This document shows positions 21,809 through 31,113 of a DNA stretch of 52,382 nucleotides, in pieces (positions within the stretch are counted from its first letter, which is position 1; each line of letters starts with the position of its first letter). Made by a program: the position numbers and the translations under genes. Origin of the DNA: Armatimonadota bacterium (lineage in GTDB: Bacteria; Armatimonadota; UBA10988); assembly GCA_016235455.1 (NCBI GenBank), contig JACRKZ010000181.1, positions 1 to 52,382 of the forward strand, read 5' to 3'. The notes below the pieces were generated by a model, which was not told the origin of the DNA, searched no databases, and saw nothing but the letters and a program-made list of their open reading frames with translations.

Positions 21809-23161
21809 CTAGAAGCCCAGGCCGGGCCCATCCATCAGCCCCGTGGCGATGAGCCCGGCGCTCGGCTTGAACACGCTCGGGTAGCGTGCGGCCCACTCGA
21901 CATTGGACTCGGGGCAGTACTGGCGGCCGTTGCCTTCGATGGCCGTGACCGCGGGAATGTGCGCGGCCAGGGCGGCCGAGTGCAGGAACGCCGCACCTGG
22001 GCAGGTCAGGTCCTGCACACACAGGAACAGCCCGTCGCGCTGCGCGGCGGCCGCCATCAGCAGCGCCTGGCTGTGGCCCTTGCACGCCTTGAGCGCCACG
22101 CCGCTGTAGCCCTGCTCCTTGGCCAGGTAGTAGGTGTCCAGGTCGGTCAGCGACTCGTCGATGACCACCGGCTTGATGGCCGCCGCGCGGTGCATGACGT
22201 TCTCGGGATGCGCCCGCAGATCACGCGCGGTGGGCTGCTCGATATAGGCCACGCGCGAGAAGGCACGCGGCGCGAGATCTTCGCAGAGCGCCAGGAATTC
22301 GAGGATGTACTCGACACTCGCGCAGCGCTCGTTGAAGTCCAGCGAGTAGACCCACGCATCGCGGCCCAGCCGGGCCATGGCTTCGCCCGCGGCCGCCTCC
22401 ACGGCGGCCACGCGGCGCGCGTCCCAGGCCACGTCCTCGCCGTTGAGCTTGATCTTGAGGTGCGTCAGGTCGTCGGCGATGATCCAGTCGACAAGCGTCT
22501 CGGGCAGTCCGTCGCCAATCGGCTGCGCCACATCGCCCGCCGTCAGCGGATCGAGTGCGCCAACCAGGTGGTACAGCGGCAGCGCCGTCTTGGGCCGCGG
22601 GCTGACGAACTGGTCCAGCGTCAGGCCGGCGAACGACTCGTCCAGGAACCGGCTCAAGTCGCCCGACAGGTGCTCAGGGCCATAGAGCTCCCAGCTATGC
22701 CGACCCAGAGCGCGGCCATAGGCGTCGTGCAGCGCGGCGTCGATAGGGCTGGTCTCGACCAGCGCATAGAGCTTGGGCATGGGCTCGCCCAGGCCGTGCT
22801 CGCGGCTCACCTGGGCGGCCAGGTCCAGCCAGACCGGCTCGGCCTGGTGAGCGATCTCGATGGGGTGAGCGTAGCCATCGAACGCCGCCGTGGCCGCGGT
22901 CGCGCGCCGGAACAGCGCCAGCCCCGCGGCCGACGCCTGCTCGGGCGTGACGACCTTGCTGGGGAAGCCCCACACGCTGCCCTGGGGCATCCAGCCATGA
23001 CCCACGCCACGCCGGCCGTCACGCGTCTCCACGGTGGCGACCACATGCAGGTTGTAGGAGAAGGTCACCACCTGGCCACCGAACTTGAGCGGCGTGCGGA
23101 AACGCGACTCGGTGGTGTCGGCGGCCAGTTCGAGGATACGGATGTCGGTGGGGTAAGGCAT
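21809..23161 (-). CDS. Mandelate racemase/muconate lactonizing enzyme family (enolase superfamily) protein
   Basis: KxK motif 'HLKIKL'; metal ligands 'DFNE', 'EQP', 'DES'; 'ALKACKG'; 'SPIDAALHDA'. Confidence 0.88.
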   Translation of the reverse strand: MPYPTDIRILELAADTTESRFRTPLKFGGQVVTFSYNLHVVATVETRDGRRGVGHGWMPQGSVWGFPSKVVTPEQASAAGLALFRRATAATAAFDGYAHPIEIAHQAEPVWLDLAAQVSREHGLGEPMPKLYALVETSPIDAALHDAYGRALGRHSWELYGPEHLSGDLSRFLDESFAGLTLDQFVSPRPKTALPLYHLVGALDPLTAGDVAQPIGDGLPETLVDWIIADDLTHLKIKLNGEDVAWDARRVAAVEAAAGEAMARLGRDAWVYSLDFNERCASVEYILEFLALCEDLAPRAFSRVAYIEQPTARDLRAHPENVMHRAAAIKPVVIDESLTDLDTYYLAKEQGYSGVALKACKGHSQALLMAAAAQRDGLFLCVQDLTCPGAAFLHSAALAAHIPAVTAIEGNGRQYCPESNVEWAARYPSVFKPSAGLIATGLMDGPGLGF

Positions 23162-23207
23162 CAGTGCTGCTCCCGGCAGGGCCGTTGAACTCGAGCTCTC
23201 TGAGAGC

Positions 23208-23274
23208 CCGCGATTACGCAGGCTACTCAGATGAGCGAACCCGCCATCTGTGCAATCTGCGTAATCTGTGGATC
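23208..23274. repeat. Empty (gene-less) copy of the CACAGATTA inverted-repeat element
   Basis: Right arm CATCTGTG CAATCTGCG TAATCTGTG GATC (23245-74) is nearly identical to 25233-63; degenerate left arm CCGCGATTACGCAGGCTACTCAGATG (23208-33). Confidence 0.8.
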
Positions 23275-23303
23275 GTTGTCCGTTCAAGGTGATGGTGCTG
23301 CGG

Positions 23304-24782
23304 TCAGTCAACCGCCGCGGCCACCTCGCCCCGCAGCCGCTCACGCGCGGCGTCCACCTCGGCGGCGCGATGCGCCACATCCTGCTCGGCGGCGTCCACG
23401 CCGGCGCCCAGCGCGGCGATCATGCGCGTCACCTCCGCCGGCGACGGGCCGCCCTGGCTGGTCTGGCGACGCACGCCGGCCAGCGGGTCCAGCACGTCGG
23501 CCACCGTGGCGGCATCGGTGGCGATGCCCGCCTCGCCCAGCGCCGCCAGAACGGTCGAGGTGTCGGCGAATGTCCGCTCGGCGCGGCTCAGCGTGCCCAC
23601 CAGCGAGCCGACAATCTCGTGCGCGTGACGGAACGGCACACCGTGCGCCGCCACCAGCCAGTTGGCCAACTGCGTGGCCACCGCGAAGTTGCCGTCCACC
23701 AGCGCGCGCATGCGCTCAGCCTTGACCCGCAGCGTGCCCACCGCGCCGGTCAGCGTGGCCAGCGCGCCCAGCGTCTGGTCGAAGGCGGCCCATACCGGCG
23801 GTTTGTCTTCCTGCAGGTCGCGGCTGTAGCCGAAGCTGACCGACTTGGTCACCGTCAGCAACGCCATCAGGTCGCCGATGACCCGGCCGGCCTTGCCGCG
23901 CGTCAGCTCCGCGCAATCGGGGTTCTTTTTCTGCGGCATGATGGAGCTGCCCGAGGTGTAGGCGTCGTCCAGCTCGACCATGCGGAACTCGTGGCTGCTC
24001 CACCACACCAGCTCCTCGCTCAGCCGGCTCAGCCCGACCATGACCATGGTCAGCGCGGACAGCGACTCGACCAAAAAGTCGCGCGAACTGGTCACGTCGA
24101 GCGCATGGTCCTGAACGCTGCCAAAGCCCATCAGTTCGGCAGTCAGCGCGCGGTCGATGGGCAGGTCGGTGCCGGCCACGGCACACGCGCCGAGCGGGCA
24201 GAGATTGACGATCTCGTAGGCGGCGCGTAGCCGCCGCAGGTCGCGCAGCCAGGCCGAGACGTGCGCCGTGGCCCAGAACCCGACGGTGATCGGCTGGGCA
24301 TGCTGGCTGTGGGTGTAGCCGGGCATGACCGTCTCGATGTGCTCCGCGGCGCGGCCCAGCATGGTACGCGCCAGCCCGACCAGGGCCTGTTCCGTCTCCA
24401 TCAGGCGCGCGCGCACATACAGGCGGCAGTCGGTGAGCACCTGGTCGTTGCGACTGCGCGCGGTGTGCAGCCGCCCGCCAAACACCGCGCCGGCGCCTTC
24501 GGTGACGTACCGCTCGACGTTCATGTGCACATCTTCGAGCTCGGGCTTGAGCTGGAACGCCCCCGACTCGTGGTCGGCGCGCGCGCGCTCGAGCCAGGTG
24601 AGGATGTGCCGCAGGTCCTCGGCCGAGATGATGCCTTGGCGGCAGAGCATGATCGCGTGCGCCTGGCTGCCCCAGATGTCCTCGGCGACCATACGCGAGT
24701 CCACCGACAGACTCTCGGTATAGGCAGCCATAGCCGCCGCCATCGAAGCCTCAAACCGACCACCCCAGGGACTCGCGCTCAC
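23304..24782 (-). CDS. argH: Argininosuccinate lyase
   Basis: 'WGGRF', 'EDVHMNVE', 'LHTARSRNDQV', 'MPGYTH', signature 'GSSIMPQKKNPD', 'DLQEDK'. Confidence 0.97.
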   Translation of the reverse strand: MSASPWGGRFEASMAAAMAAYTESLSVDSRMVAEDIWGSQAHAIMLCRQGIISAEDLRHILTWLERARADHESGAFQLKPELEDVHMNVERYVTEGAGAVFGGRLHTARSRNDQVLTDCRLYVRARLMETEQALVGLARTMLGRAAEHIETVMPGYTHSQHAQPITVGFWATAHVSAWLRDLRRLRAAYEIVNLCPLGACAVAGTDLPIDRALTAELMGFGSVQDHALDVTSSRDFLVESLSALTMVMVGLSRLSEELVWWSSHEFRMVELDDAYTSGSSIMPQKKNPDCAELTRGKAGRVIGDLMALLTVTKSVSFGYSRDLQEDKPPVWAAFDQTLGALATLTGAVGTLRVKAERMRALVDGNFAVATQLANWLVAAHGVPFRHAHEIVGSLVGTLSRAERTFADTSTVLAALGEAGIATDAATVADVLDPLAGVRRQTSQGGPSPAEVTRMIAALGAGVDAAEQDVAHRAAEVDAARERLRGEVAAAVD

Positions 24783-24800
24783 GGCCGTCTCCTTGCAGAA

Positions 24801-25263
24801 GATCCACAGATTACACAGATTACACAGATTACGGTCCGCTCACGAGACAAACCGCTTGGTCTCCAGGCTCTTCGCGCCGAAGTTCAGCAGGAGCGCACGA
24901 CGGTAGCCGGTCGCTCGAAGATAGTTGAGCACCTGCGACTCCTCAATGCCGCCGACTTTGGACAGAGCCTTGGTCTCGACGATCACCTCATCGTAGCAGA
25001 CGAAGTCAGCCCGGTAGGACGACGGCAGTTGGACCTCTTTGTAGACCACCGGCAACTGGACCTCGCGGTCGTAGGGTATACCGCGAATGCCGTACTCGAT
25101 CTGCAGCGCATCCTGGTAGACCGCCTCCAGGAATCCAGAACCCAACACCCTGTGCACCTCAAAGGCAGCGCCGATGATGGCGTACGTCTCAGGATCCCTC
25201 GGCTCTCCAGACATGCCAACCTGCCCAACGCCTAATCTGTGTAATCTGCGTAATCTGTGGATC
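24801..25263. mobile_element. Putative mobile cassette: GxxExxY nuclease gene flanked by 31-bp terminal inverted repeats
   Basis: GATC(CACAGATTA)x3 at 24801-31; its inverse TAATCTGTG TAATCTGCG TAATCTGTG GATC at 25233-63 (30/31 identity); inserted between co-oriented pyrB and argH; arms are AT-rich relative to the genome. Confidence 0.7.
24840..25214 (-). CDS. GxxExxY protein (PD-(D/E)XK nuclease superfamily)
   Basis: 'IIGAAFEVHRVLGSGFLEAVY' (GxxExxY); 'YRADFVCYDEVIVETKA' intact D...ExK; 'QVLNYLRATG...LLLNFG'. Confidence 0.93.
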   Translation of the reverse strand: MSGEPRDPETYAIIGAAFEVHRVLGSGFLEAVYQDALQIEYGIRGIPYDREVQLPVVYKEVQLPSSYRADFVCYDEVIVETKALSKVGGIEESQVLNYLRATGYRRALLLNFGAKSLETKRFVS

Positions 25264-25270
25264 AGACTCG

Positions 25271-26350
25271 CTACACCGCCAGCTCCAGGTCGCAGTAGTC
25301 GCACCGCCGCCGCCCGTCGCCGAGCACCACCATCTGCGGCAGGCTGTACTCCTCGACGCGGTTGGCGCAGTCGGGATTGGGGCAGCGCGGCTCGCCGACG
25401 ATGCGCTGCGTCGAGGGCGCCGGCGCCTCGATGCCGTCCGATGACACCGCGCCCAGCAGCGAGGCCAGCAGCGCCATGCGCACCGGCACCCCGTAAGCCG
25501 CCTGGCCAAAGTACGCCGCGCGGCGGTCAAGGTCGACGTTGTAGGCGATTTCGTCGACACGCGGCAACGGGTGCATGACCAGCATCTCGGGCTTGGAGCG
25601 TTCCAGCAGTTCCGCGTCGATGATGTAGGTGCCCTTGACCGCCTCGTACTCGCTGGCGTCGGGGAAGCGCTCGCGCTGGATGCGCGTCACGTACAGCACG
25701 TCGAGGTCGCCCAGCACGTCTTCCACGCGTTGACACAGGCTCACCTGACGGCGCGCGGGCCGGTAGCGCTCGGGCAGTTGCAGCACGTCAGGTGCAATGC
25801 AGGTGATGCGCACGTCGTAATGCTCCAGCGCGTGCAGCAGGCTGTGCACGGTCCGGCCGAAGCGCAGATCGCCGCACAGACCGATGTGCAGACCGTCGAT
25901 GCCGCCGCGCTCGCGCTGGATGGTGAACAGGTCGGTCAGCGTCTGCGTGGGATGCTGATGCCCGCCGTCGCCGGCGTTGATCACCGGCCGGCGGCAGTAG
26001 TCGGCGGCGATCTTGGCCGAGCCCTCGACCGGGTGGCGCAACACGATCACGTCGGCGTAGCTCTCGATGATGCGGGCCGTGTCGGCCAGCGTCTCGCCCT
26101 TGACCGCCGATGACGTGCGCGCGTCCTGGAAGCCGATGACCGAGCCGCCCAGCCGTTGCATGGCGCTCTCGAAGCTCAGCCGGGTGCGCGTGCTGGGCTC
26201 GAAGAAGGCCGTGGCCAGGATGCGGCCGGCGCACAGGTCGAGGCGTTGACCGATGTGGTCCTGCATGTCGCCGGCCACCGCCAGAATGTGGCGAATCTCA
26301 GCGGCCGAGAAGTCATCGACCCGGATCAGACTGCGTCCCACCAGCGACAT
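25271..26350 (-). CDS. pyrB: Aspartate carbamoyltransferase catalytic chain fused to a PyrI-type Zn-binding domain
   Basis: 'FFEPSTRTRLSFE', 'KGETLADT', 'NAGDGGHQHPTQ', 'RIQRERF', 'MHPLPR'; C-terminal 'RCPNPDC...RCDYCD'; GGAGAG RBS. Confidence 0.95.
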   Translation of the reverse strand: MSLVGRSLIRVDDFSAAEIRHILAVAGDMQDHIGQRLDLCAGRILATAFFEPSTRTRLSFESAMQRLGGSVIGFQDARTSSAVKGETLADTARIIESYADVIVLRHPVEGSAKIAADYCRRPVINAGDGGHQHPTQTLTDLFTIQRERGGIDGLHIGLCGDLRFGRTVHSLLHALEHYDVRITCIAPDVLQLPERYRPARRQVSLCQRVEDVLGDLDVLYVTRIQRERFPDASEYEAVKGTYIIDAELLERSKPEMLVMHPLPRVDEIAYNVDLDRRAAYFGQAAYGVPVRMALLASLLGAVSSDGIEAPAPSTQRIVGEPRCPNPDCANRVEEYSLPQMVVLGDGRRRCDYCDLELAV

Positions 26351-31034: not shown

Positions 31035-31113
31035 ACATCCGCAGATGATGCAGATGGACGCAGATTACGGACATGCAGAATCATCTACGTCCATCTGCGC
31101 TATCTGCGGATGT
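31035..31113. repeat. Empty copy of the CRCAGAT periodic inverted-repeat element between convergent genes
   Basis: ACATCCGCAGATGATGCAGATGGACGCAGAT ... ATCTACGTCCATCTGCGCTATCTGCGGATGT; three GCAGAT units per arm, starting ATCC as at 24801. Confidence 0.8.

Follow-up and report, generated by a model that had tools for sequence, protein, structure and literature searches.

Background

REPIN/RAYT systems pair REP doublets with REP-associated tyrosine transposases (10.1101/2021.07.10.451892; PMC8266576; PMC8049555), and in the portion of that literature cited here RAYTs are described as vertically inherited (10.1101/2021.07.10.451892). A different arrangement is the 23S rRNA IVS of Coxiella, which contains an S23p ORF and which the cited part of its description presents as a selfish element (PMC4990558).

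Here we describe a small gene cassette in a contig of an Armatimonadota bacterium (GTDB lineage Bacteria; Armatimonadota; UBA10988; assembly GCA_016235455.1, contig JACRKZ010000181.1). The whole stretch of 52,382 nucleotides was analysed and is referred to as the window. The cassette lies between pyrB and argH, and two gene-less hairpins of the same repeat family are found elsewhere in the window:

24801..25263, minus strand: whole GxxExxY cassette (arm, gene, arm), 463 bp
24801..24831, no strand: left arm, downstream of the GxxExxY gene; GATC followed by three CACAGATTA units with a period of 9
24840..25214, minus strand: GxxExxY gene; 124 aa, PD-(D/E)XK fold, D70, E80 and K82 intact
25233..25263, no strand: right arm, upstream of the GxxExxY gene; differs from the inverted left arm once, in its middle unit, CGCAGATTA
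23304..24782, minus strand: argH (context; Lyase_1 and ASL_C2 domains), its RBS and start codon just outside the left arm
25271..26317, minus strand: pyrB (context; OTCace_N and OTCace domains), its stop codon 7 nt outside the right arm
23207..23274, no strand: half-decayed hairpin of this repeat family with no gene, in the spacer that separates the argH stop codon from the next gene; intact arm at 23244-23274
31040..31108, no strand: hairpin without a gene, CGCAGATGA variant, in the spacer of a convergent gene pair

The locus resembles REPIN/RAYT systems, as the portions cited above portray them, in combining many short extragenic hairpin repeats with an enzyme gene of low copy number that has repeats of its own type on its flanks, in the association of different enzyme lineages with different repeats, and in having repeat populations that are diverse and old. 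It differs from that same portrayal in that the enzyme is a 124-aa PD-(D/E)XK protein (PF13366) where a RAYT is an HUH Y1 transposase, the arms are phased 7-nt words where a REP is a palindrome of roughly 14 bp, the gene sits inside the loop of the element, and there is no single-copy, vertically inherited gene in a fixed extragenic space (the gene is absent from a genome of the same genus, G001, and other genomes hold up to nine paralogues). Given that HUH transposase, REP palindrome and fixed vertical gene are all missing, we class the cassette as working like REPIN/RAYT and not as a member of it. Like TIR transposons and MITEs, the family has inverted ends made of repeated words, here putatively protein-binding, and gene-less miniatures that outnumber the autonomous copy; unlike them, it shows no DDE or other strand-transfer enzyme and no target-site duplication, and its autonomous unit is shorter than 500 bp. 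The ends of Tn7 and Mu carry several subterminal binding sites, and TnsA is a PD-(D/E)XK nuclease. With the Coxiella IVS, to the extent of the cited part of its description (PMC4990558), the cassette shares a small ORF (about 400 nt) closed by a long terminal-inverted-repeat stem and inserted in a transcribed region, but it lies between pyrB and argH rather than in rRNA, its ORF belongs to PF13366 rather than PF05635, its arms consist of phased conserved words, and it is accompanied by dozens of gene-less copies.

Results and discussion

Anatomy of the cassette

A preliminary description of this DNA proposed that a 463-bp unit holding just one 124-aa GxxExxY gene between inverted arms is the autonomous member of a repeat/nuclease system. 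ORF and profile searches confirmed the content of the unit: its sole ORF is the PF13366 gene, and no other ORF or transposase domain was found inside the 463 bp. The arms, described as GATC plus three units and the inverse of this, were recovered by a repeat search as 31-nt sequences that are 97% complementary (30/31) at a separation of 401 nt. After the GATC each arm follows the pattern CRCAGATTA three times, with CRCAGAT as the core word, and an 18-nt two-unit pattern allowing up to three mismatches matched the window five times against 0.00 expected (100 shuffles). Chance or an assembly artefact as the origin of the arms is ruled out by this excess, by the 30/31 complementarity and by the contigs of the DNA runs described below.

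The right arm ends 18 nt from the ATG of the GxxExxY gene and 7 nt from the pyrB stop codon (25271-25273), and the left arm starts 6 nt past the AAGGAG that precedes the GTG start of argH at 24782; both host genes are intact, as had been stated. The GC content of the cassette is 57.7%, compared with 69.5% for the window. No direct repeat is present at the two outer edges (TGCAGAA / AGACTCG), and the flanks of the empty sites in relatives are too diverged to place a duplication, which agrees with the earlier remark that neither a transposase nor a clear target-site duplication can be seen. Searches for sigma-70-like promoters (23000-25600) and for Rfam families (22800-25700, E up to 1) gave no matches. 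The cassette appears to leave no room for a promoter, and its gene would be expressed by read-through from the upstream gene, here pyrB.

The product of pyrB continues for about 60 residues beyond its OTCace domains (25271-25460), with four cysteines in a CxxxxC...CxxC pattern. This C-terminal tail is reminiscent of the zinc domain in PyrI, the regulatory chain, and the protein may be a fused catalytic-regulatory form.

The GxxExxY protein

Membership of the protein in the GxxExxY family follows from two profiles whose curated cut-offs are both exceeded, PF13366 (PDDEXK_3; 126.5 bits, E 8.5e-37, cut-off 22) and TIGR04256 (GxxExxY protein; 135.2 bits, cut-off 35). The residues of the name motif are G27, E30 and Y33; among 20 aligned homologues E30 and Y33 are invariant and G27 is nearly so (at least 90%). 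D70, E80 and K82 are likewise present and invariant in the 20 homologues, and the D...ExK nuclease motif is intact, as first reported. The AlphaFold2 (AF2) model has a pLDDT of 93.5 and contains a restriction-endonuclease-like alpha/beta core. Its best Foldseek match is 4ic1 (SSO0001; E 3.7e-4), which we take to be a Cas4, followed by 3ijm, lambda exonuclease, RecE and Hjc, all of them weak matches with TM values of about 0.4-0.55. By its predicted fold, the GxxExxY protein is a minimal PD-(D/E)XK nuclease.

A sequence-profile search of the PDB returned no match for the protein, PHROGs contained no family that it matched, and PADLOC assigned nothing to it while giving a weak Cas4 match (E 0.0039) for a paralogue on another contig of the same genome (C50). 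Longer PF13366 proteins were found only twice (269 and 226 aa), with PF13366 as the sole domain in both; the scarcity of longer forms and the lack of a fused partner hint, weakly, that the GxxExxY protein stands alone. Its sequence is 66-70% identical to proteins of Chloroflexota. Several database gene calls in this family (P0086, P0078, P0053 and P0008) extend into the arms and carry artificial N- or C-terminal tails, for example PQITQITQI and SAKSAKSVD, which are translated repeat words. In the cited portion of a 2012 survey of the PD-(D/E)XK superfamily, the function of PF13366 is given as 'Unknown' (PMC3424549), and the literature searched yielded no link between PF13366/GxxExxY and repeats.

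The repeat family within the genome

The assembly to which the window belongs as contig C84 comprises 6.5 Mb in 185 contigs, with 69% GC and 93% completeness. A census of phased YRCAGA words over this genome returned 175 arrays, namely 56 inward-facing pairs and 63 unpaired arrays. Short gene-less hairpins account for 54 of the pairs, with loops of 10-42 nt (median 19.5), two to four units per arm, and the word type CAGAT in 47 and CAGAG in seven. The cassette is another pair, and the remaining long pair, on contig C101, consists of two separate elements joined. Among the 55 elements (54 short hairpins and the cassette) the window copy alone has a gene in its loop, which fits the earlier view of it as the autonomous member of a repeat/nuclease system.

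The two gene-less copies in the window fold stably, the half-decayed one with -39.1 kcal/mol for the minus-strand RNA (z -4.5) and the one at 31040..31108 with -49.4 and -57.7 kcal/mol for the two strands (z -7.8 and -8.3). When the orientation of neighbouring genes was read from a purpose-written codon-usage gene caller, the 54 hairpins fell into 32 convergent, 22 co-directional and no divergent spacers, all of them extragenic and downstream of genes. Against a background of 26% divergent and 13% convergent among spacers of at least 40 nt in the same genome, the probability is about 1e-7 for zero divergent hairpins and 1e-15 for the convergent excess. A T-rich tail follows just four of the 54. 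The copies are diverse, the best pair being 90% identical and the median pair 66%, which suggests that they are old and gives no sign of recent activity.

Association of GxxExxY genes with repeats in many phyla

If the cassette is one instance of a general pairing, other GxxExxY genes should lie between inverted 8-10-nt periodic repeats, and three samples were scored for this. The first held the best 80 of 587 relatives of the window protein in species-representative genomes; the second, the best 80 of 571 relatives of the C50 paralogue in metagenome contigs, with 74 scorable; and the third, 34 near-full-length PF13366 matches, taken from 43 that an HMM search of 41 genomes in the phylum sample had given, with 32 scorable. 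The score was the best inverted repeat between the 220-nt flanks, and the threshold was the 99th percentile of 289 shifted control placements at the same loci. Flank scores in the first sample had a median of 19.5, compared with a control median of 8.5 and a control maximum of 15. The threshold was exceeded at 68 of 80, 56 of 74 and 31 of 32 loci, respectively, and the expected association was thus observed in GxxExxY genes of many phyla. Proteins in the first sample are 55-68% identical, come from at least 15 phyla as judged by record titles and have near-identical word arrays alongside.

The commonest layout is that of the window, one inward-facing array per side, found at 48 of the 119 loci with at least 320 nt on both flanks; the other loci have extra arrays or whole hairpins. 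Across these 119 loci the last upstream word precedes the start codon by a median of 7 nt. By a longest-ORF heuristic, the upstream neighbour is co-oriented with the GxxExxY gene at 48 of 52 scored loci of the first sample, a count from which 12 loci with GC above 62%, 10 with no repeat and six with no neighbouring ORF were dropped.

The association also holds at the level of whole genomes. When a genome was counted as having arrays if it gave at least two matches to either three-unit pattern, arrays were present in 14 of the 16 genomes that have PF13366 and in four of the other 25 (Fisher p 1e-5, related genomes not being independent), and up to nine PF13366 paralogues occur in one genome (G009). 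The genomes with arrays in which no PF13366 gene was found are G011 (65 arrays), G007 (17), G012 (11, mostly one tandem run) and G022 (3). Two of these, G011 and G007, are 95-96% complete and have CRCRRAG arrays; either their arrays are orphan repeat populations or the PF13366 gene is unassembled. In G012, head-to-tail runs of CGCAGAGGA (C70:11962-12013 and C92:8-77) comprise at least six to eight units, with no inversion and no gene. A PF13366 gene with none or one array was seen in G038 and in G040, the latter having a gene fragment with an internal stop codon.

In the contigs of DNA runs X1, X2, X4 and X5 no form joining the flanks across the cassette occurs among the joints listed, and it should be noted that contigs drop rare variants. 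These contigs end at the arms. The many joints inside the arms represent other short hairpins, of which some have loops that match hairpins of the present genome, and others have AT-rich loops at far higher depth and probably derive from other organisms. In runs X1 and X2 the summed depth of the arm bins is 10 to 100 times that of the flanks, and AT-rich loops and flanks occur in many of the joined forms, from which it seems that other organisms of these communities, with low GC, have nearly identical arms.

Action on DNA or on RNA

The arms might act in RNA, in the way of the 23S rRNA IVS. The stem would then form in the read-through transcript, be cut by RNase III or bound by protein, and free or stabilise the cistron; the hairpins without a gene would stabilise 3' UTRs or serve as terminators, and the protein would be an RNA-binding or RNA-processing factor. 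The position of every short hairpin downstream of genes and of none in a divergent spacer suits such a role, as do the co-orientation of the GxxExxY gene with its upstream neighbour, the few nucleotides between the last word and the start codon, and the predicted fold of the sense RNA, in which the arms pair over about 30 bp (z -4.4). The pattern of substitutions, however, does not follow from it. Of the 22 co-directional hairpins, 10 fold better on the transcribed strand and 12 on the other (G-U pairs 36 versus 42). Across loci, the counts of transition mismatches that yield G-U in the sense orientation are 42 versus 58 and 43 versus 44. Transversions, which break pairing on both strands, make up 156 of 256 arm mismatches in the first sample. 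Arms of the same element resemble each other slightly more closely than those of different elements do, at 0.788 versus 0.770 for one word variant (a difference reached by 135 of 2000 permutations) and 0.807 versus 0.757 for the other (reached by seven of 2000). It is the core word that is conserved and not the pairing, T-rich tails are rare, and the spread of copies would be left unexplained. For these reasons we regard an RNA-level cassette as unlikely.

Sample sizes in the tests of G-U bias, mismatch type and arm likeness are modest, and within them the absence of a G-U strand bias means that nothing points to an RNA-only role. Since the conserved feature is the word array rather than base-pairing, a protein that recognises DNA, as duplex or hairpin, fits better than a purely structural RNA. 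The original suggestion that the arms fold the mRNA or ssDNA into a stem thus receives no specific support: the sense RNA is predicted to close the arms, but a G-U bias is lacking and many of the mismatches are transversions.

Repeat words track the protein

A tblastn search of the genome found two GxxExxY genes only. The second, on contig C50, encodes a protein 47% identical to that of the window and has complete hairpins of CACAGAGRR units on both sides, CACAGAG being the word of the smaller hairpin family in this genome. The same correspondence between protein and word is seen in the larger samples. In the first, 65 loci have CRCNGAT, one has CRCRRAG, two have other words and 12 have no repeat; in the second, none has CRCNGAT, 53 have CRCRRAG, three have other words and 24 have no repeat or were unscorable. 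This division of words between protein clades (65:1 against 0:53) is highly significant (Fisher p 2e-33). Residue positions specific to one or the other clade are candidates for reading the word. The more distant proteins of the third sample go with further words, for example CACGGATTT, CGCCGAT, CGCCAAG, CGCAAAT, CGGGAAG, CACGGGG and CGCGAAG, and the eight paralogues examined for their words in G009 have eight different ones. Over the 144 loci of all samples, protein identity correlates with shared recurrent arm 6-mers (Mantel Spearman rho 0.43, reached by none of 500 permutations), and locus pairs share at least one such 6-mer in 14% of cases below 35% protein identity and in 100% above 80%. 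The repeat sequence thus co-varies with the protein phylogeny, as the preliminary description had anticipated. Part of this co-variation is co-descent, through linkage of gene and arm. Linkage does not account for the presence of the same new word in all six units of an element and in its gene-less copies, which implies a common reader or conversion between units.

This co-variation also bears on a scenario in which the gene is a passenger. The hairpins would be moved by another enzyme or selected by the host, and GxxExxY genes would lodge in their loops, for example by homing with the arms as homology. The numbers might be read that way: gene-less copies exceed gene copies by about 50 to 1 in this genome, some genomes hold arrays with no detectable gene, and three Y1 transposase (PF01797) genes are present as candidate movers. 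A passenger would not, however, impose its own word on each protein clade or paralogue. The three Y1 genes are located away from the cassette, at least two of them have different, unrelated hairpins nearby, and phased core words occur at none of the three loci. Moreover, no other type of gene is found in any hairpin loop of the genome, and a search of this 93% complete assembly for PF05635, the IVS protein family, gave no matches. A passenger role for the gene therefore appears improbable.

Two of the Y1 genes, at C159:62884-63192 (L229) and C129:4295-4603 (L230), lie beside long hairpins of their own that are unrelated to the CRCAGAT words. They apparently represent a separate REP/RAYT-like system coexisting in the same genome.

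Presence and absence in related genomes

An empty pyrB-argH junction in related genomes, predicted at the outset for a mobile unit, was found twice. In the genome of the same genus (G001) the pyrB and argH matches are 32 nt apart, compared with 512 nt in the window, the pyrB stop seems to overlap the argH start and the cassette is absent; no PF13366 gene was found in this genome, which is 80% complete. In a genome of the same order (G006) only a short spacer separates the two genes, and the cassette is missing. Three others (G002, G004 and G005) have other neighbours beside pyrB. In G005 the spacer after pyrB (L006, about 2330-2560) holds three tandem GC-rich hairpin-like repeats of the GGTAGGGCCCGTTCGCCGAACGGGCC type, which is another intergenic repeat family, unrelated to the CRCAGAT words.

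One genome of the same family but another genus (G003) has a cassette at the same place between pyrB and argH, with one part at the end of a contig and the other at the start of another. Its 31-nt arms both read GATCAACAGATGACGCAGATGAGCGCAGATG toward the gene, are hence perfectly complementary, and differ from the window arms at several positions, including a one-base insertion. The encoded protein is 64% identical to the window protein, compared with 77% for pyrB, and the window protein ranks only 39th of 122 among its matches, all of which have identities of 64-68%. The two cassettes may share descent or may have arrived independently.

The gene-less hairpins show the same restricted distribution. 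A hairpin between pyrG and a helicase gene is missing from five of five genomes of the same family, and one before gnd is missing from all three usable relatives (G005 has another insert there, and in G003 the two sides of this place lie on different contigs). The present genome contains 58 three-unit CRCAGAT arrays, whereas all five same-family genomes contain none, and a reversed control pattern gave zero everywhere. Taken together, the absence from a genome of the same genus, the 66-70% identity across phyla and the low GC content make the cassette look horizontally mobile, unlike RAYTs as described above.

It is very unlikely that the arrays are static regulatory sites, that is, operators for their own and neighbouring genes acting through the protein or a host factor, with no mobility and a family produced by duplication and selection: words phased at roughly one per helical turn are typical of sites that proteins bind cooperatively, and the arms extend over the stretch immediately before the start codon, but the fifty-odd copies stand at unrelated loci and are all lineage-specific, orthologous sites in relatives are empty, near-identical word arrays accompany 55-68% identical proteins in at least 15 phyla, and the catalytic triad is conserved.

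Conclusions

The reading that we favour, with some reservation, is that the cassette is the gene-carrying member of a hairpin-repeat family and that the GxxExxY nuclease is the cognate factor that reads the word and mobilises the repeats. The proposal of an autonomous member of a repeat/nuclease system is supported, every proposed comparative test that was run having come out in its favour. Each arm carries a 7-nt core word two to four times, spaced every 9-10 bp, and under this model the GxxExxY protein would be the cognate reader of these words, as the co-variation of word and protein suggests. Several protomers may bind the phased words in both arms, and the protein might then cut at or near the ends of the element or in the extruded hairpin, after which host repair or replication would complete copying into new sites downstream of genes. 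The 54 gene-less hairpins would be the non-autonomous copies. We know of no strand-transfer chemistry for a PD-(D/E)XK nuclease alone. A repeat-enzyme partnership of the REPIN/RAYT kind, with a different enzyme and a different repeat grammar, is the best-supported account of these data. Direct observation covers the anatomy, the family of repeats, presence and absence at orthologous sites, the co-occurrence of gene and repeats, and the co-variation of word and protein; binding, cleavage and mobilisation are the parts that we infer.

A bolder version can be offered only tentatively, and we think it somewhat doubtful: GxxExxY cassettes might be cross-phylum minimal selfish elements of less than 500 bp, moved by a 125-aa PD-(D/E)XK nuclease alone that recognises a 7-nt word of its own, repeated at each helical turn of the two ends. 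If this were true, each paralogue with its own word (up to eight per genome) would make a natural, re-codable protein-DNA recognition system, and there would be a route of transposition that uses no HUH, DDE or recombinase chemistry.

No description of an element combining such repeats with a GxxExxY nuclease was found in the literature searched. If the pairing of repeat and protein is functional, it would provide a role for the very widespread orphan family PF13366 and would account for a class of intergenic hairpins that break metagenome assemblies. It would also add a second, mechanistically different case beside repeat-enzyme partnerships of the REPIN/RAYT type, and the many word-protein pairs would offer data already at hand on a small module for sequence-specific recognition of DNA.
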